Source of the DNA: Celeribacter sp. | GTDB lineage: Bacteria; Pseudomonadota; Alphaproteobacteria; Rhodobacterales; Rhodobacteraceae | Direction: 5' to 3' | NCBI RefSeq assembly: GCF_048261515.1 | Contig: NZ_JBLXFZ010000002.1 | Location: 23,347-87,346 of the forward strand | Length of the DNA: 64,000 nucleotides | Part shown: positions 3,699 to 30,395 of the stretch, piece after piece | Layout of the letters: each line of letters begins with the position of its first letter | How positions within the stretch are numbered: the first letter of the stretch is position 1 | Program-made: the position numbers and the translations under genes | The notes under the pieces: generated by a model | What the model was told of the DNA's origin: nothing | Seen by the model: the letters and a program-made list of their open reading frames with translations, nothing else | Database searches by the model: none

Positions 3699-3941
3699 GC
3701 CCGGAGAAAACAACGTTTTTGTCCAGCGTGATCATCCCAAGGTGAACATAGTCGACAATGCAAGTTGGTGCGATTCAGCCGTTCCTCGTTCCATTACGCG
3801 CTGGTCGGGGTCAATTCCGACACGCTCGCAACGATGAAAGAGATCAACTGGATGTTCCCGAAATACCCGTTTTCGGCAGGCAACAGATCGTAGCCTTTCT
3901 GCGCTCTTCGAGCATGTGCAGATCGGAGCGGTCCTAGTCGT

Positions 3942-4263
3942 TCTTGACCTGTTCGTTCCCACGTTCCCGCGAGGATAGTGCCGAAGATATGGAAGACGGC
4001 GGGGTAGGGGCGGGGCTTCGCGTCGCGACCATATTCATACATTGATTTGACGGGAACAGTGGAACACGGGAACGGGTTCCTGCGGCTTCGCTGGTTTTTG
4101 TGTTGTTTTGTTTGTGCTCAAAAGCCCTTTGATATCAGAGGTGTGATAATTTATTTCCTAAAAAATCCGTGGGTTATCCACATATTCCAGCGCCCGCTGA
4201 ATTGAAAATTTGGCGTGTTGCACGGACATTATTTGCACGCTGAGGCGAAAGCCGGGGGCGCGG
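3942..4263. repeat. Origin-like region, copy 1 (GTTCCC/GGGAAC iterons and DnaA box)
   Basis: Colinear similarity to 15389-15724; direct GTTCCC repeats at ~3955-3968, inverted GG(G)AAC repeats at ~4052-4073, TTATCCACA at 4174-4182. Confidence 0.75.
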
Positions 4264-4351
4264 TGGATTGCTGTGATCCCTAAAAACGTCCTCGTTTTTG
4301 GTTAGAGTTTTCCGCTAGATTTTTCCTGAGCTGGAATAGGAGCGGAAACGC

Positions 4352-15173: not shown

Positions 15174-15388
15174 CTTGCGCCGCTGCTTCGAGATCGAGAA
15201 GTTTATCGATTTTATCTTCACGCAGCTCAGGAAAGTTGAGCGGAAAATCGAGCCCGACCGAGGCCGTGTTTAGGGAACACCGCAGCCGGCTAAAATTGGT
15301 CACCGCATTCGCGTTTCGGGCGGGTATGGACCCGAAAACAACCATGGTCACTTCCAATACGCGTCGCAAAATGCACGGGATTTGCCGA

Positions 15389-15724
15389 TCTTGACCTGTT
15401 CGTTCCCATGTTCCCACGTTCGCGCGAGGATAGTGCCGAAGATATCGAAAGCGGCGGGGTAGGGGCGGTGCTTCGCCTCACGCCCATACTTATTCTTTGA
15501 ATTACTGGGAACAGGGGGAACACGGGAACGGGTTCAGACAGCTTCGCTGACGTGTGCGTTAATTCGCGTGCGCTTGAAAGTTCTTTTGTATCAATGATCT
15601 GACAATTTATTTCCCAAGAAATCCGTGGGTTATCCACATATTCCAGAGCCCGCTGAATTGAAAGCTTTGCGGATTACGTGGACATTGTAGCCACGCCGAG
15701 ACGGTCGGTGTGTGGCGCGGCGGA
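15389..15724. repeat. Putative replication origin, copy 2 (iterons and DnaA box) upstream of the primase-helicase
   Basis: GTTCCC repeats at ~15402-15416, GGGAAC x3 at ~15507-15529, AT-richer tract, TTATCCACA at 15630-15638; homologous to 3942-4263. Confidence 0.7.
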
Positions 15725-15809
15725 TATCAATGTCCAAATCTCAATCCACCGCGCAATCACTCCGACATCGTCTCATTTCTGAACCGAGGTCGCTCATACG
15801 AGCGGAAAA

Positions 15810-16187: not shown

Positions 16188-18745
16188 ACGATATGTCTCA
16201 TCACTCTACTGCGCGCCACTTTCTGCGCCCTCTCAGGTCAAAAGACCTGCCGGAAACCGCACTCCCTTGTGTGTCTGTCCCTGCGGAGTTTCCGATGCCT
16301 GATATGCGTCTCGGGACGACTGTGCCTGTCGCGACATATGAGTATCGTCATGGGGACGGGACTTTGGCGTTCCTTGTTGCTCGTTGTGAGTACGATGATC
16401 GGACGGGATTTTATCCGTTCAGCGTTTGGCGTGTGGAAGGTCAGAAACGCTGGGTCAATAAGGCGCTCCCCGTCGATGCTTTCGCAACGCGGGCACCGCT
16501 CTACCGTTTGACGGACCTCATGTCGAATTCTCTCAAACCCGTTTTGATCTCTGAGGGAGAGAAATGCGCGGATGCAGTTGCAGGGTTCGAGAGCGTTGTC
16601 TCGACAACCTGGCATGGCGGCGCGAAGGCGTTGGCAAAAACCGACTTCTCGCCGCTGAAGGGCCGCGATGTGATCATCGCACCCGATGATGACGAACCGG
16701 GTGCCAAGGCGGCCGAGACGCTGGCCGATACGGTGAAGGCACTCGGCGTCGCGCGTCTGCGGGTTTTGAGGGCAAGCGCGCTGACCGACATGTTCGTTGG
16801 CATGCGCAACACGGGCTTTGATATCGCGGATGCCATTGACGCCGGACTGTGTGAGGCACAGTTCATGGCTCTTCTGGAACAGGCCGGGATGGTGGAGGAG
16901 ATTGATGTGACGGTTGCGGAGGAAGGCGCCACCGATGCAGCTTCTGATGAACATACCGATGAGGACCCCATCTGTCGTGAATTGCGCGAGCAGTTTGGTT
17001 TCGAACTCGATCTGCCTGACAATTTCAACATGTCCGTGGGCGGTATTGTGAAATACGACGTGGACCGTCGCGGCCAGCCGGTTGAGGTCTACGCAGGGTC
17101 TCCTATCGCTGTCCTCGGCAGGACAAAGCTTGTCACGAGCCGCGGCGGATGGGGCTATCGCATCGCGGTGCGGGCACCAAAACACGACTGGGAGTCCTTC
17201 ACTGTGCCTGGCCGTTTGCTCGCGGGCGACGGGCGTGACCTGCGCGAAATGATTGCCGACACTGGCGGAATTGTTCCGCAGCAGATGGACGGGCGGCGCG
17301 CCTTGGCTGAGTATATTGCCGAAGCCGCGCAGACTTGTCCGATCGTCAATGTCACCGACCATCCCGGCTGGTGTGGGGAGGCCTTCGCATTGCCTGATGT
17401 GATTGTTTCGCCCGAGAAAGATGACATGCAGCTGACGCTCGACATGGGCGATCGGCCGACCCTGCTTGCAACGGCGGGCACTCTGGAGGGGTGGCAGGAC
17501 CTGACGCGGCTCGCCGCACCAAACAGCCGTGCGACATTCGCGATCTGCGCGGCGCTCGCAGCACCCTTGCTCAGGCCTCTCGGCATCGAGGGCGGTGGCT
17601 TCCATTTCTACGGCCAGTCGTCCCGCGGAAAAACCACCCTGTTGATGCTCGCGGGCTCCGTGTGGGGCGGCGGGGGACGTGATGGGTTTCTGCGGAGTTG
17701 GCGCATGACGGTGAACGGGGCCGAAAGCGTTGTCGCGGATCACAACGATTTGGCGCTCTGTCTCGATGAAATGACCGTTGCGGATGCGGACGGGTTCACC
17801 GACATGCTCTATATGCTCGCGAACGGGCAGGGCAAAGCACGTGCGAAGAAAGACGGCAGTGCCGCAGCAAGCGCAAAGTGGAATGCGTTGGTCTTGTCGT
17901 CAGGTGAGAACACCATTGAGCAGCAGCTTGAGCAGGGGCGCGGGAAGCGGCGTATGACGGGTGGCATGGTTGTGCGCATGATCGACGTGCCCATCGAAGT
18001 CGAACCGGGCGTGAGTTTTGAAGACCTCGGGCCGTACGAGAATGGCGGCGCCTTCGCGGATCAGATCAAAGCGCTCTCCCGCGCGCATTATGGTCACGCG
18101 GGCCGCGTGTTTTTGCGGGCCCTCGTCAATAATCGCGAGGCGCTGTTGGCCAAGGCGCGTGAGCATATCGAAGCCTGTTTGGAGCGCATGCTCGATGACG
18201 ACGATGATCCGCAGATCCAGCGCGTTGCACGGCGTTTTGCCGCTGTTGCCGCCGCAGGGCATTTGGCCGAGCAGGCGGGTATTTTGCAGATCTCACCGGA
18301 GCAGATCGACGATGCGGTTTCTGGATGCTTTGGTGCCTGGATTGTGGCTCGTGGCGGCGGTCAGTCCGAGGAATGGCGCAGCGCCGCGCGACACCTGCAG
18401 TACTTTTTCGAGGCTCACGGCCCGACGCGTTTCGAGCGCCTCGAAAATGGGAAGGCCGCCGACGATGATGCGGAGCGCAGTGACGGTTTTGCTATCCGTG
18501 ATCGTTGCGGGTATCGCGTCGAGCAGGAGGATGGCGCGTGGCTTTACTATGTGCTGCCCTCGGCGTGGGAGCGGGACGTCTGCGGACCTCACTCACCCGA
18601 TCTCATGGTCAAGATTGCTAAGGACCGCGGCGCGCTGATCTGCGGTGAGGGCGGGCGCAGCAAAAAGAACGTTCGTCTTCCCGACTACCCCAACACCACG
18701 CGCGTCTACGCCATCCGTCCCGATCTCCTCGCTGGCGACGGGTGA
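16184..18745 (+). CDS. Toprim primase-DUF927-AAA+ helicase fusion (satellite/island replication protein)
   Basis: Toprim EGEKCAD and PDDDEPG; DUF927-like centre; Walker A GQSSRGKT; Walker B LCLDEM. Confidence 0.85.
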   Translation: MNDMSHHSTARHFLRPLRSKDLPETALPCVSVPAEFPMPDMRLGTTVPVATYEYRHGDGTLAFLVARCEYDDRTGFYPFSVWRVEGQKRWVNKALPVDAFATRAPLYRLTDLMSNSLKPVLISEGEKCADAVAGFESVVSTTWHGGAKALAKTDFSPLKGRDVIIAPDDDEPGAKAAETLADTVKALGVARLRVLRASALTDMFVGMRNTGFDIADAIDAGLCEAQFMALLEQAGMVEEIDVTVAEEGATDAASDEHTDEDPICRELREQFGFELDLPDNFNMSVGGIVKYDVDRRGQPVEVYAGSPIAVLGRTKLVTSRGGWGYRIAVRAPKHDWESFTVPGRLLAGDGRDLREMIADTGGIVPQQMDGRRALAEYIAEAAQTCPIVNVTDHPGWCGEAFALPDVIVSPEKDDMQLTLDMGDRPTLLATAGTLEGWQDLTRLAAPNSRATFAICAALAAPLLRPLGIEGGGFHFYGQSSRGKTTLLMLAGSVWGGGGRDGFLRSWRMTVNGAESVVADHNDLALCLDEMTVADADGFTDMLYMLANGQGKARAKKDGSAAASAKWNALVLSSGENTIEQQLEQGRGKRRMTGGMVVRMIDVPIEVEPGVSFEDLGPYENGGAFADQIKALSRAHYGHAGRVFLRALVNNREALLAKAREHIEACLERMLDDDDDPQIQRVARRFAAVAAAGHLAEQAGILQISPEQIDDAVSGCFGAWIVARGGGQSEEWRSAARHLQYFFEAHGPTRFERLENGKAADDDAERSDGFAIRDRCGYRVEQEDGAWLYYVLPSAWERDVCGPHSPDLMVKIAKDRGALICGEGGRSKKNVRLPDYPNTTRVYAIRPDLLAGDG

Positions 18746-18789
18746 TCGTTTAACAACCAACTGCCCCCGCCTGCCTTGTTAAACGATCA
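18743..18789. other. Palindromic site A (14-bp arms, 19-bp spacer)
   Basis: TGATCGTTTAACAA-N19-TTGTTAAACGATCA, a perfect IR that starts at the helicase stop codon. Confidence 0.85.
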
Positions 18790-18964
18790 GGGCAGGTGGG
18801 GGCTATGCCGTGAGTGAGGCGAGCGGGGGGGAACGCTTTTCTACCAGGTGCCGTGTCGATGGCGTGTCGACCATGGCACGCCGTGATCCTATCGCGCCAG
18901 GTGTCGCGACACGGGCGCCGATATTGCATTGGCCGAGGTGATGGCCCCTCGCAGTACGCCACTT

Positions 18965-19323
18965 CTAATTTGTGTCTGTGGACGTGACTACTTTCAGAGC
19001 TTTGACACCCGCGGTTTGTAGATAGCGCAACAACCTTTCACCATAACTGCCAGAACATTCGATGCCGACGCGTTGCAGATCACCGAATGAACGCATCCAT
19101 TCCAACATCATGCGATGTCCATGCCGTGTGGTTGCGAAGCTCTCGGTGCCGAGCGCAGGGTCGTAATGGTCGACGACGGATTCAACGTGTAAATCCGTGT
19201 GAGTGTCGACGCCTCCGACGATGTAAGGTGTGTATGTTTCTTGCCTTTTGATGCTCCTTTCATGCGGCAAGTGAGTGAGCGTTGCTCAGAAGAATGCAGG
19301 GACAGGACCGGTTATTGTCTAAG
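18965..19323 (-). mobile_element. IS110-family remnant (N-terminal DEDD domain plus ~55 bp of upstream non-coding end)
   Basis: GGVDTHTDLH...GTESFATT...FGDLQRVGIECSGSYG; stops after ~100 aa with no C-terminal domain. Confidence 0.8.
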
Positions 19324-19474
19324 TGATCTATCCCCGCGGGTGCGGGGGAGCCCAACTCTCTTTGTCTGACATCGATTTCATCTGGGGTCTATCCCCGCGG
19401 GTGCGGGGGAGCCTACACACGCGGCCCCAATGGCGTCAGAGGCCAGGGTCTATCCCCGCGGGTGCGGGGGAGCC
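19324..19474 (-). CRISPR. Type I-E CRISPR mini-array: three 29-bp repeats and two 32-bp spacers
   Basis: Repeat GGCTCCCCCGCACCCGCGGGGATAGACCC at 19446-19474 and 19385-19413, with a degenerate terminal copy at 19324-19352; spacers at 19414-19445 and 19353-19384. Confidence 0.95.
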
Positions 19475-19539
19475 TCTTGCGAGCAATAGGTTGATTTTAT
19501 TCAATTGTCAAAGGGCGTGAAGGCGAGTTATCGGGGCGC
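19475..19539 (-). promoter_or_regulatory. CRISPR leader
   Basis: AT-rich TTGACAATTGAATAAAATCAACC...GCAAGA between the cas2 stop and the first repeat. Confidence 0.7.
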
Positions 19540-19833
19540 TCACTTTCGTTTGGCGAGTAAAACTCCATCTGCATCGACAATGTCTTTAGGTGGTTCGCCC
19601 AAATTTTCGATCTGCAGGTGTCCGGTCGCGGAGGTGTCGCGCCAGACAAGTGTGAGGGAGCCTTGACGCAGGTTTTCCCACCAGTCAGAGACGACATTCC
19701 AGACCCGTGTGCGCACCCCTGCTGTCATATCTGGCGCGACGTATACGCCGGGCGAGATTTCTAACATGACGGAGGTCAGGAAGCCGCGGTATCGGGTTTG
19801 GACATTCCGAGTGACGATAATGGTGAGTGCCAT
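19540..19833 (-). CDS. cas2: Type I-E Cas2
   Basis: MALTIIVTRNVQTRYRGFLTSVMLEISPGVYV...DADG; 97 aa; true start at 19833. Confidence 0.92.
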   Translation of the reverse strand: MALTIIVTRNVQTRYRGFLTSVMLEISPGVYVAPDMTAGVRTRVWNVVSDWWENLRQGSLTLVWRDTSATGHLQIENLGEPPKDIVDADGVLLAKRK

Positions 19834-20156
19834 CAATCGCGGCCTTCGATCAAGGTTTTGATCCGTTCGATCATAGCAGAGATAATTTTTTCGTCGGATA
19901 GGGTGCGGGCATGAGCCAAAAGACGCAAAGCGTCGTGACTGACTGTAGAGCCTGGGCCCAAAAGGGTCATGGAGACGGTCTGAAGCGGGATAGCATAGCC
20001 GCCGGGGGAGAGAGCATCTGCGGGGGTGGTTTCTCCCTGCACAAAGGCGAGTGTGCCGTCGCGTGCCGTTAGGGCGCCGCGCGCAGGATAGAGGCATCCC
20101 GCGCGATCGGCGTGAGGGACTTTGACGCTGTCGAGGCCGAGGCGTCCTTTGAGCAT
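19833..20156 (-). pseudogene. cas1: Type I-E Cas1 with a large in-frame internal deletion (107 aa)
   Basis: Cas1 N-terminus (MLKGRLGL...LLGPGSTVSHDALRLLA) joined directly to a Cas1-like C-terminus (EKIISAMIERIKTL); located between cas6 and cas2. Confidence 0.85.
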
Positions 20157-20159
20157 TGT

Positions 20160-20894
20160 TCACTTCCTGCGTTGCGGCGGACGCAGGAGCAACATGCCAT
20201 AGCCATAGGTGCGATGGCGCCCGATGCCGCGTGCCAGAAGCTCGGCAAAGCCCTGTGGGTCTTGCACAGTCAAGGTGCCGAGGATCGTAGCATCTGGTCC
20301 CTCGATCCGTTTTCCGCCGCGCTGGACGACCTGACGCTGGAATTTGTGCAAACGAGTGGTGTCCCGCTCCATTTTAGCCACGGGCGAGAGCCGTTTGGCC
20401 AGCCAGTCGCGATAAACCTCTTCACGCGGACGTGCCTGATCGTTGCGCAGAGTTTCTGCGAGGAAGGCATCTATTTCGGCGCCCTTAGAAAAGGTTGTTT
20501 TGTCCGAGGTCAGCGCAGAGGCCAGCCGGACAACAGGGCGCAGGCGCAGATCGAAGCCGAACCTCGCGCCTGCCTGCCATGTTTCCGCCGGACGTGGGAG
20601 CGAGCGGATCTGTTCGAGGTTCAGAAGTGCGCATTCACTGGGGAGAGCGACGCTTTTGGCCGTCTCCAGAAGAGCCTGCGCCGGTTGTGAGCTATAGGCG
20701 TAAAGAGTGGCCCGCGTTGCGCGCGGTGCGACCATGAGGCGGAAGGGCTGCAATGCGGCGGGGCCGAAGACCTCGCCCAATAGGTGGTGCAGGGCCAGTC
20801 CTTCGTCAAAGGTGCCCTTGCTCAGGTTGCGTTGCGCAGCCCAACCGTGCAGGTCAGGCAGATGGATCGGGAGTTCGACGAGATGGAGGCTCAT
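20160..20894 (-). CDS. cas6e: Type I-E Cas6e (CasE/Cse3)
   Basis: RAMP with C-terminal GIGRHRTYGYGMLLL glycine loop. Confidence 0.93.
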   Translation of the reverse strand: MSLHLVELPIHLPDLHGWAAQRNLSKGTFDEGLALHHLLGEVFGPAALQPFRLMVAPRATRATLYAYSSQPAQALLETAKSVALPSECALLNLEQIRSLPRPAETWQAGARFGFDLRLRPVVRLASALTSDKTTFSKGAEIDAFLAETLRNDQARPREEVYRDWLAKRLSPVAKMERDTTRLHKFQRQVVQRGGKRIEGPDATILGTLTVQDPQGFAELLARGIGRHRTYGYGMLLLRPPQRRK

Positions 20895-21589
20895 GCGATT
20901 TCTCCTTCGCAGATAATCCGTGTGCCACCGTGCAGTCCGGTTTTCCAGTTCCGCAAATCCTGCAGGTCGTATTTGAGCGCACCGTCGTAGGGTCGGCCAT
21001 CATCGGGCCAGATCGCGCGGCCTGTGATTCCCTGTTCCGCGAGGGCCTTGAGGGCTGCATAGGGGCTATCGGCCTCAATCCATCCGGCAACGAGGCGGCG
21101 TGTCGGCAGACAGGGTTTGCGTCCCAGAAACAGCGGGCGTGCCGGACGATCGAGCGCGTCTGCCAGTTGCTCTAGCGAAGGCGACACATCGGAGGTCAGC
21201 CGGATCACCACATGGGTGTCATGGTCGGCCAGATAATCGCGGCGACGACGGTGCGGGCTGTCATAAGTGGCCCCTGCACGTCCTTCGGGCTGGCCCCATG
21301 TGGTCCAGCCTTTGTCTTTTTTTTCCAGTTTGGCGTTCTGCGTATCGGTTACGATCAGCGGGGCGTGTCGCCCTTCGGGCAGGGCCGAAAGTGCGGCAAA
21401 CTCCAGCCGGTTTTGCAGCGCCTGATGGGCGGCGCTGTCCTCGCGCCGCCAGCCGAGGGCATTGGCAAAGAGTCCTGTCAGTGCGGAGGCGGCGGGGTAG
21501 TCCCGCGACGGACCGACATGGTCGATTGTCCCCCCTCCAAAGGCCATGAGCGGCGCGGCGAGGTGAAGATGGAGCCAGCGTTGCGTCAT
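20891..21589 (-). CDS. cas5e: Type I-E Cas5 (CasD)
   Basis: APLMAFGG, PAASALTGLFANALG, RRRDYLAD, LFLGRKPC. Confidence 0.93.
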   Translation of the reverse strand: MTQRWLHLHLAAPLMAFGGGTIDHVGPSRDYPAASALTGLFANALGWRREDSAAHQALQNRLEFAALSALPEGRHAPLIVTDTQNAKLEKKDKGWTTWGQPEGRAGATYDSPHRRRRDYLADHDTHVVIRLTSDVSPSLEQLADALDRPARPLFLGRKPCLPTRRLVAGWIEADSPYAALKALAEQGITGRAIWPDDGRPYDGALKYDLQDLRNWKTGLHGGTRIICEGEIA

Positions 21590-22725
21590 GCAGCCTCCGG
21601 CGCTTTCAGCCGCTTGGGTAGGGATTTGGCGAATTGGGCCAAATTCTCAAGCGACCCGCGTTCCGCATCGGGCACCTCGGTGTTGGCCAGCGACATTACG
21701 CGGCGGGTTTCACCTGTGGCATAGGCGGAATCGAGCGCGGCAAGATGGTCGCACAATGCGGCAACGGCCTGACCTGTTTCGGCCTTGCAGGGAGAGCGGA
21801 AGGCTTCGGCAAGGGAACGCGGTTGCCGGTCTCCGGCCTCAAGCAACATAAAGGATGCGCGCGAATAGGGCGCGGTAGATCCCAGCTTGGCGCCTGGTGA
21901 CACTTCAGCAATCAGGTAGGTCAGGTTGTGCAGCACTTCTCCGGCCAGCGCCACGTCGCCGCCGAGGTTCTCGATCAGGCCGGGCAGGTCTACCACTACA
22001 TAGCCGTAGAACAGCCCCGACGTCAGCTCGGTTTCCTGAATGGTGTCGGCGCCCGTGTCCACTTCGCGGGCCAGATCGTCGGCGGCGATGAAGTAATCGC
22101 TTTCTGCCTCTTCCGCGTGGACGGTGAAGGCATGGGCGACATGCACGGGTGCCTCGATATTGGCGCGAGGATCGGATGTCACCATACGCCCGAAGAGTGC
22201 TCCCGTGAGACCGGCGGGCATTTTGGTGCCTTCACTCATGGCTTTGAGGTTGGCCTTGTGCTCCTTGAGCCATTGTGCTGCGAGATCCTTTGCAGCTTTC
22301 TTGTCGCCGCCTGCCTCCGCCACAAGTTCCTTGGCCGCTTTGGTCAGATAGGCGATTTCAACGGCACCGAGAAGCAAGGTCTGACGCGACTTCTTGTCAG
22401 CGCCTTTGTCGCCATAGACTGCTTTCAAAAGAGCGTCTCCGATTTCCTTGCGCACGTCCTCGTCAATACTGTCAGCCCATTCTCCGAAAACCTTGCGTTC
22501 AACGATTTCGCGCGACCGAAAAGCATCTTCAGCCCCGTCGATCTCGCTCAATGCATGGAGGTCTTCGGCTAGACGCCAGTGCCGCTTGAGACATTGGGAA
22601 CTGACCCGTGTGCGCAGGGCTCCTCCATAGGGTAGTCGCTTGGCAAGGCCTGCATCGTCACGGTTGAGCAATGCGGCTGTATAGGGGGCGAGGAAATGGA
22701 TTTGCAGGAAGCGCGGATCAGACAT
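21586..22725 (-). CDS. cas7e: Type I-E Cas7 (CasC/Cse4)
   Basis: LLNRDDAGLAK, RVSSQCLKRHW, ALFGRMV, HVAHAFTVH, YGYVVVD. Confidence 0.95.
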   Translation of the reverse strand: MSDPRFLQIHFLAPYTAALLNRDDAGLAKRLPYGGALRTRVSSQCLKRHWRLAEDLHALSEIDGAEDAFRSREIVERKVFGEWADSIDEDVRKEIGDALLKAVYGDKGADKKSRQTLLLGAVEIAYLTKAAKELVAEAGGDKKAAKDLAAQWLKEHKANLKAMSEGTKMPAGLTGALFGRMVTSDPRANIEAPVHVAHAFTVHAEEAESDYFIAADDLAREVDTGADTIQETELTSGLFYGYVVVDLPGLIENLGGDVALAGEVLHNLTYLIAEVSPGAKLGSTAPYSRASFMLLEAGDRQPRSLAEAFRSPCKAETGQAVAALCDHLAALDSAYATGETRRVMSLANTEVPDAERGSLENLAQFAKSLPKRLKAPEAA

Positions 22726-23260
22726 TTTGGATTTCCTTTTCAGGGGTGCGCGCGCTCTGGTCGAGGCGCTGGTAGTAGTCGCGGGCGATGCCCTGCCCGT
22801 CTTGTTTCAAATAGGCCCATGCAAGACTGGGCACGTCGATCTGGGGGTGTTTACGTGCAAGCATCCGTATGGCCCGTTCAAGAGCATCATGCCGTGCCGT
22901 GCCCCGTGCGGCGAGCAAACGTGCAAGGCGGGGTTCGGAGAGTACCGGCTTTTCAATATGCGCCCGAGCGTCGCCTCCATCGGCAAGAATAGCTCCGAAC
23001 TGGCGACCATTTTCATGGATGCTTTCGGTTGAGCTGGCAGGGGTCAGGAGCGCCAGTGCCTTTGTGATCGCTCGCCACACGGGTTCTTCGGCAGGAGTCA
23101 TGCCGAACCGCGCTGCCATACGCCAAAAGACCGGCGCCCCCTCGGTGCCCATGCGGCGTGCGGCGGCCTTTTCGCCGCTGGACGCGTGAGCAAGTGCTGT
23201 TGCAATCGCCAAGGCGCGGGCGCCAACTGATGTGGCAGCATTGGTGTCACTTTCAGACAT
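22718..23260 (-). CDS. cas11e: Type I-E small subunit Cas11 (CasB/Cse2)
   Basis: Position between cas8e and cas7; SEPRLARLL and ARDYY motifs; start moved to ATG 23260. Confidence 0.85.
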   Translation of the reverse strand: MSESDTNAATSVGARALAIATALAHASSGEKAAARRMGTEGAPVFWRMAARFGMTPAEEPVWRAITKALALLTPASSTESIHENGRQFGAILADGGDARAHIEKPVLSEPRLARLLAARGTARHDALERAIRMLARKHPQIDVPSLAWAYLKQDGQGIARDYYQRLDQSARTPEKEIQNV

Positions 23261-24755
23261 GTTCCTTCTCCGTGATCCCGAAATTCTCAAATATTTTTCG
23301 AATACTGCTCTCAAAAGCCGCGCGGCCGCGTGTCATGGCGCGTGGCCGCATGATCCCCGCACAGGGAATCGCGGGGGCGGCGCGTGCAAACTCGGCGCGA
23401 GCGGCTGCGGCCAGATGGCGGGTAAAGCGGTTCTGTGCCTCATTGCGGGCATAATCGTCCGAGCATGCCAGTTTCTCCCAAAGAGCGGGGAAAAAGGCTG
23501 CATCGGCAATGCGTGCGACCTGATCGCAGGCGGGTTGGCTACGGGCGTATTCGGCTTTGCCGCGCTTGGCAAAGTCGCCCTCGGCTGCAATCAGGGCTAA
23601 CCCGTCTCGCAATGCACGATCAATATCGTCGATGGTCTTGACTTGTACGGCGGAAAATTCTGCAGCTTGTGGGCCGATCATAGATTTTGTCACGGCTTTT
23701 GGCACTGGAACGACACGGGATTTGAAGCCGTCAGTCTTGGAATTCCCGCGAGCAAAGGCTTCGGCGACCAATGCCATGTCTATAGCCTCTTCATCAGCCG
23801 TCGAAGTGGCCAGTTCCGGCACTTTCCATTCTCCGCCATAGAGCAAGCGCGTAAGAAGTTTATAGCTCCAGTTCTGTTCCCCGAGTGTCAGGGTTTTGTT
23901 CTCGGAGAGGTGAACCGGTGCCCAAGGATCGCCAGTCATGCCTTTGGCTTCCTTGGCCGCGATCCGAGCGGCTTTTGATGTGCCGCGTTTTGCAAAGAGG
24001 CCTTGCGGACTTTCTAGGAGGCGGATGCGGCGACATACCTCAATGAACATTGGATCAAGCGTATGGAGATCGAGCATCTGCTTCTGAGGCCAAGGCAGGC
24101 ACCACAAAAGCGCGGGTCCCGACAGGCCGTTGCGCTTGGCCAGGAGCCGCGTCACGTCACGTCGCCACCATGCGGAGGGATCTATGATCGCTGTGCCTGA
24201 TTGCACTGGTACAAGGCCGATCATTGCCCGCGACGAGGAGCCGCCATTCATCCGGGCAATGCCGTAGTTCCCAGCACCGCCGAACCCCTCCATCGTTTGT
24301 AGGCTCACCAGCGCAAAGAGCCAGTCCTGCGGTGTAGCGTTATGGGCGATCTCACGTTTAAGATCGTGATTGCGCGAGGTGATGAGCATGTCGAGCGCAT
24401 CAGGGGTCGCCACTTCGCTCCACTTCACGCCGCCGGGATTAGGGGGCTGCAAGAAGGCGGGCTTGCTGTCATCCTCTACGACCAGGTGCCACGCTACGTC
24501 ATCCTCGAACTCGGCAGTCAGTTTGCGCAGATTTTCGCGCCATGTCTCTTCATCCTCTGGCAAGGGGACATCCTGTCCGCTGTGCGCCAAAACAGCCAAT
24601 TGCACGAGAAACATGTGCCATGCGGGTCTCTGGTGGGGACGCAGGGCAGGGAAACTCCGGACCTCACCACGTGCCATCGCGGCAAAAATCCCAGGTAAGG
24701 TGAACGCCCCACCGTTGGTATGAATAAGAGGGTCAACCAAGAGGTTATGTGTCAT
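23253..24755 (-). CDS. cas8e: Type I-E large subunit Cas8e (CasA/Cse1)
   Basis: HNLLVDP, LRPHQRPAWHMFLVQL, GFGGAGNYGIARMNGG, EVCRRIRL. Confidence 0.9.
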   Translation of the reverse strand: MTHNLLVDPLIHTNGGAFTLPGIFAAMARGEVRSFPALRPHQRPAWHMFLVQLAVLAHSGQDVPLPEDEETWRENLRKLTAEFEDDVAWHLVVEDDSKPAFLQPPNPGGVKWSEVATPDALDMLITSRNHDLKREIAHNATPQDWLFALVSLQTMEGFGGAGNYGIARMNGGSSSRAMIGLVPVQSGTAIIDPSAWWRRDVTRLLAKRNGLSGPALLWCLPWPQKQMLDLHTLDPMFIEVCRRIRLLESPQGLFAKRGTSKAARIAAKEAKGMTGDPWAPVHLSENKTLTLGEQNWSYKLLTRLLYGGEWKVPELATSTADEEAIDMALVAEAFARGNSKTDGFKSRVVPVPKAVTKSMIGPQAAEFSAVQVKTIDDIDRALRDGLALIAAEGDFAKRGKAEYARSQPACDQVARIADAAFFPALWEKLACSDDYARNEAQNRFTRHLAAAARAEFARAAPAIPCAGIMRPRAMTRGRAAFESSIRKIFENFGITEKEHV

Positions 24756-24757
24756 AG

Positions 24758-27259
24758 TTATGTCTCCTCCAGACGTGCCAACCCCGATGCGTCATAAATG
24801 AAACCTGCGGTCCCGACGCGGAACGTAAGCGGGGAGGTCGTGATGATCTCTGTTGCTTCATCCCCCGTCAGGTCACGCGCCCAATGCGCAGGCAGGGCAA
24901 GCGTTGCGACAGGTGCTCCGAAGGGGCCGATTGTGCCTTCGGGAAAGGTAACAATGGGGCCGCTTTCACCCAGCCGCGTGCGGATGACTTCCTCGTTGGG
25001 GAAGGTGTCTGGAAACTTTTCGCGGCGGTCGAGGATGACATTTTGTGCCCCCATGGTCTCCGCGATAACCTTTCCCGTCACACGGCGACGATAGTCTTCC
25101 AATCCATTTTGAGCGGCAATCTCGTCGAGTCGTTCGGGATGGGTGGCGCGTTCGACCAGTCTGCGGTTCATCTGCGGAATGCGCCACAGCGGCTCGTTCT
25201 CGATTTTGTGCAGTGTCGCGGCCAGACCCGGCACGTCGAGATAGACGCCGGAAAGCGTTGTGTTCTGTCCATATGTGCCCAAGCCATTCTCCGGCTCGCG
25301 GGTTAGTCGGCCAAGGTCGCCCTCGGGGCAGAGGACCACGGCGCTGGCTTGTTCGAACCCGCTGGGGCGAGGCCGGTTGTGGCGGTGTAGGCGGCCGATC
25401 CTTTGCAGCAGCACATCCATCGGGCACAGGTCGGTGATCAGTATATCGGCATCAATGTCGAGCGATTGCTCCAGTGTTTGGGTGCCAATGACGATGACGC
25501 CTTGTGCGGCGCTGTCCTTGCCCAGAACTGCCTCGACGTGGACGTCGAGCCGCGCCCGGTCTTCAGCGGTAAACCGGCTGTGATGTAGGGTTGGCGTGCG
25601 ATTCAGGCAAAACATCAGATCGGGGGCCTCACTTACGCAGGCGGCAAAGGTCTCTCGCGCGCGGTCAACGGTATTTCGGATGACCAACACCCGCGCTCCG
25701 CGGCGGGCAGCCGATATGGCTTTGGCGGCGGCGTCTTCGCCGCTCCAGCCGCTGTATGCGGTAACCGCGACATCCTTTTGTGCCGTGTGGCGGGTCTGGA
25801 CAGGGAAACACTCACCTTTTGTCCAGACTGCGGGGTAGGGTGTCTGTTCTGCCTCCGATAGGCTGGGGAGCGGTGTTTCGCGCCAGGCGGATCGCGCCAC
25901 GGCCCCAAGGGTGGCTGACATCAAGAACGCATGCCCCCCAAGCGCCAGATGGTCACGTAGAACCGCGCGCTGGATTTCTGTCATCCATGCATCCGAGGCG
26001 TGAACTTCGTCAATGACCAGCAAGGAGCGCGACAGTGCCGATCCACGCAAATGCGCATGTTTGACCTGAAGCCCCGCCATCATCGCTTGATCCACTGTGC
26101 CGACAGCAATCTGAGCGGTGAGATAGCGCGTCGCGTGTTCGGCCGCCCATCGTTTTGCTCGGGTGTCGCTGCCCGCATTGTCATCCCATTTTACCTCGAA
26201 AGCGGGCAGGCGAATGCCATGCGCCTCGCCGGAAACGGTTTGCCCCGGTATCGCAAGCACGGCTTCGGGGACTGGAGCGGAAAATATGCGGGCCATCGCC
26301 GCGTTTACACGGCTTTGTAATTGACGGGCTGCGGCACGAGTGGGAACGGCGAAGTAAAGGCTGTCCACGGCGCCGATTTCATACAGTTGAACAAAACGCC
26401 ACAGCGCGGATTCGGTTTTGCCTGCACCTGTTTCAGCCTCAAGGATCACAAGATTGTCGGAAAGTGGGGTTCGAGCCACGACCTCCTGTGCTGGGCGTGG
26501 TGTCGGGTAATCTGACAAGAGTGCCCATGAGGCAGGGCCGGAGAGATGGCGGTCGGATGTGTCCAGACCGATCTCATGGACACGCCGTCGTGCCCGCTTT
26601 CGGGCGGTGTCCCAATAATCTGGGTCGTATGTTGCGACGAATGGAAACGCCTCCCGATCCGATCCGATCCAGTCCGCCAGTGCCAGAAGGCCGCAAAAGA
26701 AATGTGCAAATGTGGGGGACGGTGGTGGTGGGCGGTGGTCGCGGATTTCGGGAAACCATGACGCGAGAGCCTGCCCCATACGGGCCTCTTCAGCTTTCCA
26801 GTCATATTCTTCCAGCGGAGCAAAGGCATCTTGTGCCCAGCTTGGATCCGGACAGGTAACGGGGCGGCCATGATGGGCGAAGAGTATTTTAAACCAGACC
26901 TCTATCCTGTCCCAGCGGACGATATGGAGCGCCTGTCCGCCAAGGGCACTTGCTGCATCGCCCTGCTGCAGCCATTTCCAGCCGCACCGCAAATGATCAC
27001 GCGTCTTGCGGGGATATGGTGAGGGAAGGGCTTTGCTTTGAAAGGACGGGGCTAGCTTTCCGATGTCATGGAGAAACGCGAGTGCGCCCAAACACATGAG
27101 TTGCTCATTCGTCAGACTTTGCCCTGCTGCGCGTTCTGCGCGGGCGCGCAATGTAGGGAGTTCAAGTAGGGCAAGCAGCGTGGCCGCGACATCAGCACTG
27201 TGATGCGCGAGATGGTGAAACTCGCCTGTATCTGTGTCAGTTTTGCCCCAAGAATGCAT
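24758..27259 (-). CDS. cas3: Cas3 HD nuclease-SF2 helicase, apparently intact
   Basis: HHSADV, HDIGK, LADWIGS (HD domain); ETGAGKT, DEVH, SAT, HHSRF, QTLEQSLDID, QRIGRLHRH. Confidence 0.96.
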   Translation of the reverse strand: MHSWGKTDTDTGEFHHLAHHSADVAATLLALLELPTLRARAERAAGQSLTNEQLMCLGALAFLHDIGKLAPSFQSKALPSPYPRKTRDHLRCGWKWLQQGDAASALGGQALHIVRWDRIEVWFKILFAHHGRPVTCPDPSWAQDAFAPLEEYDWKAEEARMGQALASWFPEIRDHRPPPPSPTFAHFFCGLLALADWIGSDREAFPFVATYDPDYWDTARKRARRRVHEIGLDTSDRHLSGPASWALLSDYPTPRPAQEVVARTPLSDNLVILEAETGAGKTESALWRFVQLYEIGAVDSLYFAVPTRAAARQLQSRVNAAMARIFSAPVPEAVLAIPGQTVSGEAHGIRLPAFEVKWDDNAGSDTRAKRWAAEHATRYLTAQIAVGTVDQAMMAGLQVKHAHLRGSALSRSLLVIDEVHASDAWMTEIQRAVLRDHLALGGHAFLMSATLGAVARSAWRETPLPSLSEAEQTPYPAVWTKGECFPVQTRHTAQKDVAVTAYSGWSGEDAAAKAISAARRGARVLVIRNTVDRARETFAACVSEAPDLMFCLNRTPTLHHSRFTAEDRARLDVHVEAVLGKDSAAQGVIVIGTQTLEQSLDIDADILITDLCPMDVLLQRIGRLHRHNRPRPSGFEQASAVVLCPEGDLGRLTREPENGLGTYGQNTTLSGVYLDVPGLAATLHKIENEPLWRIPQMNRRLVERATHPERLDEIAAQNGLEDYRRRVTGKVIAETMGAQNVILDRREKFPDTFPNEEVIRTRLGESGPIVTFPEGTIGPFGAPVATLALPAHWARDLTGDEATEIITTSPLTFRVGTAGFIYDASGLARLEET

Positions 27260-27302
27260 TCAAATAACGATCAACTGTATCATTGTCTGTCTAATGCCGG
27301 GA

Positions 27303-27332
27303 ATTGTGCGAGGACTATATGTGTCGCACAAT
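27303..27332. promoter_or_regulatory. Candidate operator upstream of cas3
   Basis: Perfect 9-bp IR ATTGTGCGA-N12-TCGCACAAT, 44-73 bp upstream of the cas3 start. Confidence 0.4.
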
Positions 27333-27682
27333 GGAGGAATTCTGGCCTTTATGTATGTACCGCTTCTTGGCCGCTTCTTGTAAAAACACGCAATTTTGGG
27401 ATAGTGAATTCCAGTCAAGCGAGGCCCGTTCGGCTTTTGCAGAGAGCATTGAGCTCGGGGGGTGACTTGCGGGATTTCGGAAATTGATCCGACGCGGACA
27501 AAACGCAGCGTGACTGTTATTCCCCTAAACTCCGAGGAGTTGTGGCGAGGCAGGACGTCCTCATTTCAGATCAGTGTGACAACCCTGATCATTCCTCACT
27601 GTTTTTATTCGTGCAAAAGCGCCGTCTGTGCTAAAGTAGACCGCAATCTGTGGTGTAGCTGTGGCATGAGCGGCCCTTCGGA

Positions 27683-27729
27683 TAATCGTTTAATAATAGT
27701 ACGATACCGTCACGATAGTTAAACGATCA
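27683..27729. other. Palindromic site B (14-bp arms, 19-bp spacer)
   Basis: TAATCGTTTAATAA-N19-TAGTTAAACGATCA; arms match site A at 12/14 and 13/14 with identical spacing. Confidence 0.8.
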
Positions 27730-27734
27730 TGATC

Positions 27735-28976
27735 TCAGTGCAGTAGCGGTCGCGCGTTGACGGCTTTCAGCTCCGAGACAATGCGGTCGATGTGGCGCAG
27801 TGTGACTGCGCGAGACCAGTTGCGGATGACGGCCATCCGCAGAGCAAACAAGTCACGTGGATCGAGGTCCGCATGATGCGTTTCGACGTATGCCATCACA
27901 TCATCGATCGTCAGTCTCGGGATCTGGATGACGCGCATCCGTGACAGCAAAACGGGGTCGATAGCGTTGATGTTGTTGGCTGTCAGGATGAATGACACAT
28001 CGCCCAGATCGACGGTCACACCAGTCGCGGGGCAGCGGAAATGCTTTGCCGTAGAGCGTTCGAGAAGTGGCAAAAGCGCATCAGACATCGAGCTGCGCGA
28101 GCCGCTGCTCGACGTGGCGCCCTTGCCGACCTTGTCGATCTCATTGATGATGACCATCGGATTTGGCGATTGGCTGTCGATCACCGCGCGAAAAACGTCA
28201 CCCATCTGGCTCGACGACCAACCCGCCTCGACACCTGCGATCCGCATCGCGGATGTGCCTGCACCCGCATCGATCTCGACGTGGTGGATGCCAGCTTGTT
28301 CCGCGATATTCCGCGCGAGTGTCGATTTGCCTGTGCCATGCGCACCGACGAGGAGGGTAGGGGTCAATCCGAAGAAGCGGTCCTCCACCATTCGGGCTTT
28401 TAAGGAGGACCAGATCACGTTCAACGGGCGCTGCAACCAAGGCGCTTCGGCGAAGATCTTGGCGACCAGCTCGTCGATCTCGTGCTCAGAGCGCGGTCCT
28501 GCGTAGGCGAGTGGCCCCGTGGCGGATTGGAGCCGTTTGAGTGTCTCCTTATCCGTTTTAGAGGAGATTTGGCGTGTTAGGGGATAGCGCCGCGCATATT
28601 TTGTTGCGCGGGCTTCAATGTGCTTTTTCTGTTCGCTCTTCTGGTTGATCACGGTTTCAACAATCAGACAGGCTTGGAAATATGAGAAGTCGTGTGCATC
28701 GGCACGGCAGGCGTCCGGATCGAACGAGGTCAAAAGCTCCGCAATCTGTTTGCGGAAGGCTTTGAAGTTGAAATCGAAGTTCTGGAACACGCTGGCTTCG
28801 TGGCTGAGCTCGTCAATGCCGATGTCGAAGGCTTCGTCAAACGGAATACCGAGTTCGTCCGCCTTGGATTTGAGACGCGTATAGGCGCGTTTGCGTGAAG
28901 CGCGCAGCAACTTCTTCCAGATGCGCGTTTTGGCTTCGCTTCGTGTCTCGCGGATGGTGTAGGTCGTTTTCTTCAT
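27735..28976 (-). CDS. AAA+ ATPase with a Lon-like ATPase module and no protease domain
   Basis: Walker A GAHGTGKS, Walker B-like IINEIDK, LLPLLE, FILTAN, LLSRMRVI; start placed at MKKTT. Confidence 0.8.
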   Translation of the reverse strand: MKKTTYTIRETRSEAKTRIWKKLLRASRKRAYTRLKSKADELGIPFDEAFDIGIDELSHEASVFQNFDFNFKAFRKQIAELLTSFDPDACRADAHDFSYFQACLIVETVINQKSEQKKHIEARATKYARRYPLTRQISSKTDKETLKRLQSATGPLAYAGPRSEHEIDELVAKIFAEAPWLQRPLNVIWSSLKARMVEDRFFGLTPTLLVGAHGTGKSTLARNIAEQAGIHHVEIDAGAGTSAMRIAGVEAGWSSSQMGDVFRAVIDSQSPNPMVIINEIDKVGKGATSSSGSRSSMSDALLPLLERSTAKHFRCPATGVTVDLGDVSFILTANNINAIDPVLLSRMRVIQIPRLTIDDVMAYVETHHADLDPRDLFALRMAVIRNWSRAVTLRHIDRIVSELKAVNARPLLH

Positions 28977-28980
28977 AGCG

Positions 28981-29115
28981 CTATCCAATGAAGAGCGACA
29001 GAATATCGGACAAGATGCTGAGCAGATCGTCAGCAAGAACGATCATATTCGCCGCGGCCAAAGCCAAAATTTGAAGGTCGCGTTCTGTACGCGTTTTGTT
29101 GTTTGAAGTCGTCAT
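28981..29115 (-). CDS. 44-aa small protein with a hydrophobic C-terminus
   Basis: MTTSNNKTRTERDLQILALAAANMIVLADDLLSILSDILSLFIG; AGGAG RBS; stop 4 nt before the ATPase start. Confidence 0.55.
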   Translation of the reverse strand: MTTSNNKTRTERDLQILALAAANMIVLADDLLSILSDILSLFIG

Positions 29116-29294
29116 GATGACATCTCCTAATGATGGTAGGAGTCCCGAGTATCGAACTCGGCCGTCCGCGCTCATCTGGCGCCAATTCTCGGGGGTATAA
29201 GACCCGACCGCACACCTGTGCTGACTCCCGTTGCTGGAAGCAGTGCTAATCAACCGATCAGCGTATGGTGTGGATCGTGCTCTTGGTCATCATG
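29116..29294 (-). ncRNA. Structured 5' leader (candidate cis-regulatory RNA)
   Basis: Series of hairpins (GCTGATC/GATTAGC, CTTCC/GGGAG, TCGGG/CCCGA, CCGAGT/ACTCGG) ending in CTCCTA/TAGGAG, which occludes the RBS. Confidence 0.45.
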
Positions 29295-29300
29295 CGGGGT

Positions 29301-29329
29301 ATATGGGATTAAGGTGCATGTTGGTCAAG
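29301..29329 (-). promoter_or_regulatory. sigma70-type promoter
   Basis: CTTGAC-N17-CCATAT, close to the rhizobial RpoD consensus CTTGAC-N17-CTATAT. Confidence 0.55.
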
Positions 29330-29738
29330 GGGAGGAGGAGAAGAGTCAATCTCGTTTTTCCGCAAGACTTTGTTGAACAGATCTGAAGTCAGACGATATG
29401 CCAGTCTCGATTGTGTCCTTCGTCTCAGTGGTCTCGGATCGGAGTGTCTCATGAGCCTGCGCAATTCGACATAGTGTTAAAGCGTCATCATCTCGGCCAG
29501 CTTCGGTTCGGTTCTTCTCATTGTTTTGGCGGTAAAATTTCCCATGGCATGAATGTTTTGAACATTTGCTCTTGCCATTTAAATTATTTGTAGTCACAAA
29601 TTGGACTATACAAATTGGAGTCGACGGATTGCTTGCGCTTTCCTTGGCTTCAGTGGGGCGGCGGTTCGCGTTTGCTGCCGGATTTTTATGGATGGCCTCG
29701 CCGGCCGATGCCCGTTCGCAACTTAGGAGTTTTGCTTC

Positions 29739-30395
29739 ATGACCTTTTCCCCCGATGAGCTGGCAAAGCGGCAAGCCATTATCGATCACTGCATCTTGAT
29801 GAATAGCTCGGGGCTCAATCAAGGGACGTCGGGAAACGTTTCGATCCGTCATGGCGAGGGACTTTTGATCTCACCGACGTCACGTCCCTATGCGAGCCTC
29901 ACACCGGAAGACATCGTCTTTATTGATGGGGACGGGGAGCCGCATGGTCGCTGGAAGCCTTCGACCGAATGGCGTTTCCACCGTGATATTCTCAAGACAC
30001 GCAAGGACGCAAATGCTGTGGTCCATGCGCACCCGACCTACACCACGATCCTTTCGATCCATAACAAAGAGATCCCCGCCATCCACTACATGCTGGCGGT
30101 CTTCGGCGGGCCGAATATTCGCGTTGCTCCCTATGCGATTTACGGAAGCCAAGAGCTTTCCGACAATGCGATTGAGGCACTGGTGGATCGTCAGGCCTGT
30201 ATCCTCGAGCACCACGGCATGATCTCCGTCGGCACCTCGATCCAGCAGGCATTCTGGTACGCGACCGAGCTTGAAACCCTTGCGCGTCAGTATCACGGCG
30301 CCCTGCTTCTGGGTGAGCCGCCTTTGCTTACGGATCAGCAAATTCAGGATGTCATCGACAAAATGGCGGGCTACGGCCTGAGCGACAAAAAATAA
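29739..30395 (+). CDS. Class II aldolase (L-fuculose-phosphate aldolase family)
   Basis: GTSGNVS, PSTEWRFH, HAHP, LEHHGM. Confidence 0.92.
   Translation: MTFSPDELAKRQAIIDHCILMNSSGLNQGTSGNVSIRHGEGLLISPTSRPYASLTPEDIVFIDGDGEPHGRWKPSTEWRFHRDILKTRKDANAVVHAHPTYTTILSIHNKEIPAIHYMLAVFGGPNIRVAPYAIYGSQELSDNAIEALVDRQACILEHHGMISVGTSIQQAFWYATELETLARQYHGALLLGEPPLLTDQQIQDVIDKMAGYGLSDKK

Follow-up and report, generated by a model that had tools for sequence, protein, structure and literature searches.

Type I-E CRISPR-Cas loci (short palindromic repeats, clustered and regularly interspaced, and their associated genes) are typified by the system of Escherichia coli K-12 (cas3-casABCDE-cas1-cas2), which has a Cas3 with fused HD and DExH domains, a leader between cas2 and the array, 29-nt repeats with a CCCCGC/GCGGGG stem, and 32-nt spacers. 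Adaptation-less CRISPR systems are known from mobile genetic elements, namely type IV-A3 plasmids, CRISPR-associated transposons, jumbo-phage systems, and viral mini-arrays, which have in common that adaptation was lost as a conserved trait of the lineage, that a defined mobile element is the carrier, and that spacers are directed at rival elements (PMC11656645, PMC9071438, PMC7038947). Sporadic cas pseudogenes and degenerate secondary loci in genomes with several systems form another described kind (Bernheim et al. 2020, PMC7145637), in which a damaged system can sit alongside a complete one of the same subtype. Here we describe a type I-E locus with a truncated cas1 gene in Celeribacter sp. 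(RefSeq assembly GCF_048261515.1), found in a stretch of 64,000 nucleotides of contig NZ_JBLXFZ010000002.1 (positions 23,347 to 87,346) that is referred to below as the window. The locus, delineated with NCBIfam profiles and repeat mapping, occupies window positions 19324–27259 on the minus strand and reads cas3-cse1-cse2-cas7-cas5-cas6e-cas1Δ-cas2, followed by a leader and a three-repeat array (Table 1).

The window locus shares gene order and content with the E. coli K-12 system, as well as all of the Cas3, leader, repeat, and spacer features listed above. Cse1 and Cse2, the cas7-cas5-cas6e order, the HD and DExH motifs of Cas3, and Cas2e with an array are all present, while a full-length Cas1e integrase with its catalytic E/H/D residues is missing. 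Two further differences from E. coli K-12 were observed. In the window, a start/stop overlap joins cas3 to cse1 and the genes that follow also overlap or lie end to end, an arrangement that suggests a single operon from cas3 through cas2. The locus also belongs to a distinct Rhodobacterales-centred clade, whose Cas1 has ~37% identity to the E. coli-like form. Intact sister loci of this clade (Roseovarius sp. ZX-A-9, a Pseudorhodobacter metagenome-assembled genome (MAG), and metagenome contigs L023–L030) have 90–95% DNA identity to the window locus and an identical repeat. They also have a 291-aa Cas1, 19 to at least 47 spacers, and a block of ~85 nt before cas3, whereas the window lacks all three.

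We consider it probable that a private slippage deletion ended adaptation in a horizontally acquired, redundant I-E cassette. In this scenario, a cassette of the Rhodobacterales clade would have been acquired horizontally, and a spontaneous microhomology event of the replication-slippage type would then have removed 552 bp of cas1 in this lineage alone. The native cas3 upstream region and the greater part of the array would have gone as well, two further scars that are specific to this lineage and go against a maintained system, and the interference genes may still be intact only through the recency of these events. In favour of this reading are the mapped deletion with its microhomology junction, the rarity of the stub and its signs of lost constraint, the two-spacer array beside an insertion-sequence remnant, the missing block before cas3, a second complete system in the genome, the accessory distribution of the cassette, and the lack of targets for either spacer.

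The cas1 deletion

Cas1 is 291 aa long in all nine of the close relatives that served as the reference set for the locus (two same-genus genomes and seven metagenome contigs, the latter with 90–95% DNA identity to the window from the cas3 ATG to the first repeat). Alignment against all nine revealed one gap in the window cas1, an in-frame deletion of 552 bp, or 184 codons, which removes codons 86–269 and joins residues 1–85 of the normal protein to its last 22. A previous reading of this DNA from its letters and open reading frames (ORFs), hereafter the sequence-only reading, had described a Cas1 of only 107 aa in which ~86 N-terminal residues were fused in frame to the last ~20 at a junction near 19895, and it had proposed an alignment to full-length I-E Cas1. 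That alignment confirms the fusion, while the exact composition is 85 and 22 aa and the junction lies at 19903–19907. The match of the window protein to the Cas1e profile is restricted to positions 3–69 of 269 and scores 43.8 bits, against a cut-off of 215.6. The junction sits inside a CGCAC microhomology, with breakpoints at ...CATGCCCGCAC upstream and ...GG(G/A)CGCAC downstream, and the BLAST segments that flank the deletion overlap by 7–10 nt. A junction of this kind is what slippage or microhomology-mediated deletion usually leaves.

When aligned to solved structures, the missing residues 86–269 were found to correspond to ~L74–S258 of E. coli Cas1. The catalytic residues E141, H208, D218, and D221 (E. 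coli numbering) all fall within the deleted part, three of which (E141, H208, and D221) had already been placed there by the sequence-only reading. Because the catalytic core and part of the N-terminal domain are lost, the window locus cannot integrate spacers with its own Cas1-Cas2, and its earlier description as adaptation-dead stands in this respect. Since the deletion is in frame, an outcome with a prior probability of one third, the TGATG overlap between the cas1 stop and the cas2 start is preserved in the window, and this overlap is identical in the relatives. With cas2 also full length, the claim that cas2 and its translational coupling were kept is correct.

In a collection of ~15 billion proteins, the Cas1 stub was the sole member of its 90%-identity cluster and came from one contig. 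We also surveyed 80 loci of the window's I-E clade, taken from GTDB species genomes. Full-length Cas1 was present in ~70 of these loci, the window's lesion was present in none, and two carried other cas1 lesions. The latter are an in-frame TAG at cas1 codon 273 in a Rhodovulum MAG (L043:9545–10417) and a frameshift near cas1 codon 39 in an Acidobacteriaceae MAG (L082:3773–4640), and each may be either a true pseudogene or an error in the MAG. Damage to Cas1 thus occurs sporadically across the clade, and the window allele is private. The locus resembles sporadic cas pseudogenes and degenerate secondary loci in that cas1 is broken by a nonsense mutation or a frameshift in other members of its clade, and it differs from them in that its lesion is a clean in-frame internal deletion with the interference genes untouched. 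The sequence-only reading had presented adaptation loss as a feature of elements of this type and had suggested looking for the same deletion elsewhere. No recurrence was seen among the 80 loci, and the stub is alone in its cluster; loss of the adaptation genes is not a conserved lineage trait, and it is not a conserved design.

A separate observation from the survey concerns five Cascade-only loci (L083, L085, L089, L090, and L105), which have cse1-cse2-cas7-cas5-cas6e without cas3, cas1, or cas2 within 7 kb. The genome that holds one of them, L089, also carries a complete copy (L066).

Array, cas3 upstream region, and interference genes

The array repeat (29 nt, GGCTCCCCCGCACCCGCGGGGATAGACCC) was mapped at 19446–19474, 19385–19413, and 19324–19352, with a spacing of 61 nt; the third repeat is degenerate and ends ...GATAGATCA. 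Two 32-nt spacers lie between the repeats (19414–19445 and 19353–19384), in agreement with the two-spacer array reported previously. The repeat is identical in the arrays of the relatives, which have 20 to 60 repeats. In relatives with an intact Cas1, arrays of 20, at least 48, 60, 43, and 38 repeats (19–59 spacers) were observed, compared with two spacers in the window. The leader holds a promoter-like TTCACG-16-TAAAAT at 19521–19494, and the predicted 5′ handle of the CRISPR RNAs (crRNAs) of this array is AUAGACCC. The two remaining spacers are leader-adjacent and would be the newest.

An IS110 fragment begins 16 nt past the last repeat and comprises the 38 nt ahead of its ATG and the coding sequence as far as codon 101. 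It is 78% identical to a ~1.65-kb insertion sequence (IS) in Antarctobacter plasmids, where the left end of the intact element lies 373 nt before the ATG, and no further copies of the fragment were found in the genome. We infer that a deletion in which the IS110 element took part cut away the distal array, which would have left the two leader-proximal spacers. Elsewhere in the clade, a three-spacer block is duplicated inside one array (L016:15843–16208) and a single spacer inside another (L017:13940–14061), duplications that indicate recombination between repeats in the clade.

Searches for spacer targets covered the organism's own genome (local BLAST), 72,556 plasmids, IMG/VR (searched with N at every sixth position), JGI metagenomes, and 400 family genomes with up to 3 mismatches, and none of these contained a target. 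Among 50,697 phage records, only chance matches in unrelated hosts were observed (E at or above 0.3). This absence of targets is weak evidence, given that the databases are incomplete and thin for marine Rhodobacterales elements. The idea of a frozen weapon against specific rivals, as put forward in the sequence-only reading, finds no backing here, as neither spacer has a protospacer in any collection searched.

In four close relatives (L023, L024, L027, and L030), a conserved block of ~85 nt with 86–92% identity, containing …CTGCGAAAAAACTTTTTGCTTGCCAATAG…TTAGATTATAAATAAAATTTGTGCG…, lies directly before the cas3 ATG and is probably a promoter or regulatory region of the window's I-E clade. The window's 500 nt upstream of cas3 have no similarity to this block, similarity to the relatives begins exactly at the ATG, and no Shine-Dalgarno-like sequence is evident before the window cas3. 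With the native upstream block replaced, expression of the operon would need new upstream DNA or read-through from the neighbouring AAA ATPase gene. This gene, at 27735–29036 on the minus strand, is upstream of and co-directional with cas3; it encodes a 433-aa Lon-like AAA+ ATPase without a protease domain and is absent from the closest species. PADLOC returned only weak, uninformative matches for the ATPase (TRIP13-like, E=9e-5) and for the helicase on the other side of the cassette.

Cas3 and all Cascade genes are full length, as had been claimed with reference to the HD and DEVH motifs, and this is confirmed by NCBIfam matches (Table 1) and by the positions of the Cas3 motifs (LHDIGK at 63, GAGKT at 278, DEVH at 417, SATL at 448, and QRIGRLHR at 619). 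The window cas3 aligns over its full length to the relatives at 76–95%, cse1 has collinear 500-aa orthologues in the relatives, and their cse2 orthologues are 180 aa long with PF09485. Across the six interference genes, 4 of 514 highly conserved sites are changed (A284S, A564T, and W720L in Cas3, and P88A in Cse1), none of which hits a catalytic residue, and cas7e is unchanged at all 138 of its sites with conservation of at least 95%. If transcribed, cas3, cse1, cse2, cas7, cas5, and cas6e could make a Cascade with two fixed crRNAs and recruit Cas3, judging from their intact reading frames. The earlier label of interference-competent would be in keeping with the ORFs, all of which are intact, and is weakened by the missing conserved promoter-proximal block before cas3.

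Several of our observations weigh against the explanation of a private deletion in a redundant cassette. The interference ORFs, 7.1 kb in all, are free of stops and frameshifts, every Cas3 motif is kept, and the leader and first two repeats are perfect. Along the window lineage, the interference genes have 40 non-synonymous and 86 synonymous changes (ratio of non-synonymous to synonymous rates, dN/dS, ~0.15), which places them under purifying selection during most of the lineage. Cas2 is changed at 0 of 26 highly conserved sites, and the excess of non-synonymous change in the stub and cas2 together (10 non-synonymous and 10 synonymous changes, dN/dS ~0.35) is not significant relative to the interference genes (p=0.13). 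Such intact interference genes are as compatible with ongoing selection as with a lesion that arose very recently.

The rival that survives best, which we nevertheless regard as unlikely, is that an interference-only module has been kept by selection, with Cascade and Cas3 maintained against two fixed targets to the benefit of the host or the island. The intact ORFs and their purifying selection are what such a module draws on, along with the intact leader, promoter-like site, and repeats, and the location of the cassette in an island that also holds a primase-helicase and repeats resembling an origin; adaptation-less CRISPR on mobile elements is, moreover, well documented (PMC11656645, PMC9071438). 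It is harder to reconcile with an allele that is private and without recurrence in either the protein collection or the clade survey, with two spacers that lack known targets, with the loss of the native cas3 upstream sequence, and with an island that has no integrase or detectable ends and at whose edge the cassette is a separate insertion. The clade's only adaptation-less relatives also lack cas3, and so represent a different architecture. The likeness to adaptation-less systems of mobile elements extends to an effector with a very short array, no working integrase, and an adaptation module of a compatible subtype elsewhere in the cell, but in the window adaptation was lost through a private deletion, a degraded island serves as carrier, and the spacers have no known targets.

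A second type I-E system and the remaining alternatives

A search of the genome for another cas1, one of the checks proposed in the sequence-only reading, located one on contig C6. A complete cas3-cse1-cse2-cas7-cas5-cas6e-cas1-cas2 system of the E. coli-like clade is present there (C6:5623–15824, L006), with an array of 32 repeats (repeat CCGTTCCCCGCACACGCGGGGATGAACCG) and 31 spacers, none of which has a target in the organism's own genome. As in degenerate secondary loci, the genome holds two systems of the same subtype, one complete and one damaged. The paralogous cas1 on C6 is the sole match in the assembly to the missing 552 bp, at 43% amino-acid identity. The encoded Cas1 is intact (~308 aa) and 37% identical to that of the window's clade, and the Cas2 proteins of the two systems have no detectable similarity. 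Their repeats are identical at 21 of 29 positions, with a CCCCGCAC.CGCGGGGAT stem-loop core in both, while the leaders are unrelated and cannot be aligned apart from a TTTGACATTG motif, and the 5′ handles differ (ATAGACCC versus ATGAACCG). The C6 system is the intact candidate for adaptive immunity in this genome.

Cross-talk between the two systems, in which the C6 Cas1-Cas2 extends the window array in trans, or the window Cascade is loaded with C6 crRNAs, would make the window's own Cas1 dispensable; we judge it improbable. An intact Cas1, a Cas2, and a 32-repeat array in the same genome speak for it, as does the stem-loop core common to both repeats, and there is one demonstrated precedent for acquisition in trans, that of type IV-A3 arrays extended by host I-E Cas1/2 (bioRxiv 10.1101/2023.06.23.546257). 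That precedent was predicted from, and depended on, similar repeats and leaders, a similarity that does not extend to the present pair, with its unrelated leaders and repeats matching at 21 of 29 positions. The divergence of Cas1, Cas2, and the 5′ handles argues against cross-talk as well, and the window array, with two spacers against 31 in C6, has no sign of ongoing acquisition. On these grounds, the proposal in the sequence-only reading that Cas1 is borrowed in trans was not borne out. It is likewise doubtful, to about the same degree, that the cassette persists as an I-E effector for interference only, dependent on the C6 system for new spacers or crRNAs. If true, this would be chromosomal cross-talk of two I-E clades, like the partnership of type IV-A3 and I-E, caught just after integrase loss.

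An artefact of assembly or sequencing, with a full-length cas1 in the true genome, is very improbable. The genome is a 15-contig draft, which favours such an artefact, yet the junction homology of 5–10 nt is far below assembler k-mer sizes and too short for a collapse. The missing 552 bp are absent elsewhere in the assembly, which is 99.99% complete, and the cas1 flanks are collinear within a 445-kb contig.

Modelling of the stub structure gave a predicted local distance difference test (pLDDT) score of 44.7 and a predicted template modelling (pTM) score of 0.25, with no residue at or above a pLDDT of 70, compared with 81.6 and 0.79 for a full-length relative modelled with the same 20-sequence alignment. 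The stub is without strands 86–91 and 94–97, the last two of the N-terminal domain, and beyond those retains only the last helix. Of its 39 sites with conservation of at least 95%, two depart from the consensus, A11V and L24P, and L24 is invariant in 20 relatives; the comparison with the changes at conserved sites in the interference genes is marginal (p=0.06). A count of amino-acid changes unique to the window looked significant (p=0.0015) but was not relied on, since the branch is longer in that segment and this confounds the count. The stub looks unconstrained, with hints of relaxation. We take the main Cas2 contacts of Cas1 to lie in the deleted helical domain, and the suggestion that the stub could still bind Cas2 is weakened by the deleted N-terminal strands, the low pLDDT, and the L24P change at an invariant site. 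Although the reading frame and the coupling to cas2 are kept and residues 1–85 retain ~94% identity to the nearest relative, a stub with a function of its own, such as partnering Cas2, acting as a scaffold, or regulating adaptation in a dominant-negative manner, is the most implausible reading of all, given the one-in-three chance of an in-frame result, the lost strands, the poor model, the L24P change, and the lack of a second example in the protein collection or the clade loci.

Island context and significance

The closest species in the genus, with 98% protein identity on both flanks, is syntenic with the window up to 3538 and again from 29536, and has no such cas cassette. Between these points lies a variable region of 26 kb (window 3.5–29.5 kb), an island that contains IS3, IS256, IS481-like, and IS110 fragments, a polysaccharide cluster, an intact DUF927 primase-helicase, the cas cassette, and the AAA ATPase. 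At the right junction, the closest species retains the last 62 codons of the DUF927 helicase, the 3′ hairpin, and ~100 nt. Origin-like direct repeats are found at 3930–4275 and 15380–15735 (~345 bp, ~80% identical, with GTTCCC/GGGAAC repeats) and carry a DnaA-box-like motif, TTATCCACA. One copy precedes the primase-helicase operon and the other is at the island's left edge by the IS3 fragments, with a low-GC (44–47%) polysaccharide gene cluster and IS debris between them.

No tRNA or tyrosine integrase was found in the 64-kb window, the island ends were not recognisable, and the island had no plasmid match. An Rfam scan of 18000–30000 returned no family, and the helicase had no exact record in public contigs. 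The cas cassette lies past the helicase gene's 3′ hairpin and is a separate insertion at the island edge. The sequence-only reading had placed the locus on a replicative island; the intact primase-helicase and the duplicated origin-like repeats are in keeping with this, whereas the missing integrase, tRNA, and ends, and the separate insertion of the cassette, are not.

Related hairpins were observed at 18743–18789 and 27682–27730 (TGATCGTTTAACAA-N19-TTGTTAAACGATCA and a 79%-complementary copy), and everything from the IS110 fragment through the array and the cas operon to the cas3 upstream region lies between them. Each hairpin is located just past the stop codon of the flanking gene (the helicase on one side, the AAA ATPase on the other), and no other occurrence of their 11-mer GATCGTTTAAC was found in the 3.4-Mb genome. 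In the closest species there is just one copy, which follows the helicase remnant. The cassette could have used the pair as a site of insertion or recombination.

Table 1. Features of the type I-E locus and its immediate surroundings, in window positions, with the evidence for each
Feature	Position	Strand	Evidence
cas3, 833 aa, HD nuclease fused to SF2 helicase	24758..27259	-	NCBIfam cas3_core 1e-52 and cas3_HD 6e-18, both above cut-offs
cse1/cas8e, 500 aa	23253..24755	-	TIGR02547 casA_cse1 end-to-end, 1.9e-16, 60 bits, below curated cut-off of 70
cse2/cas11, 180 aa, start as in relatives	22718..23260	-	TIGR02548 casB_cse2 1.6e-7, 31.5 bits against cut-off of 28.5
cas7e, 379 aa	21586..22725	-	TIGR01869 1e-99
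cas5e, 232 aa	20891..21589	-	TIGR01868 2.1e-50
cas6e, 244 aa	20160..20894	-	TIGR01907 3.4e-9, below cut-off; 90%-identity cluster with members named CasE
cas1 remnant, 107 aa	19833..20156	-	Codons 1-85 plus last 22 codons, in frame; junction 19903-19907
cas2e, 97 aa, full length	19540..19833	-	TIGR01873 1.7e-26; 85-93% identity to relatives
Leader	19475..19539	-	~93% identity to leaders of close relatives
CRISPR array, 3 repeats and 2 spacers	19324..19474	-	Repeat mapping, comparison with relatives
IS110-family internal fragment	18969..19308	-	PF01548
cas3 upstream region, unrelated to the relatives' conserved ~85-nt block	27260..27734	-	Sequence comparison

Across the genus, window-type I-E systems are present in 3 of 33 genomes and C6-type systems in 2 of 33, and only the window genome has both. 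Both I-E clades are sporadic in the genus, which, together with a closest species that lacks the cassette, points to an accessory distribution. The window locus is most likely a second, redundant system at an early stage of decay, or at best one with frozen memory. The phenomenon falls within known kinds, those of degenerate secondary loci (PMC7145637) and adaptation-less systems (PMC11656645, PMC9071438). It is one more case of CRISPR-Cas erosion, with a slippage deletion in cas1, an array shortened beside an IS remnant, and a replaced upstream region, and not a new class of system. Its value is modest and lies in a naturally occurring Δcas1 allele whose I-E effector is otherwise intact, alongside a system of a different I-E clade. 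A culturable marine Rhodobacterales strain of this kind would let the sharing of adaptation machinery or crRNAs between I-E clades be tested directly.

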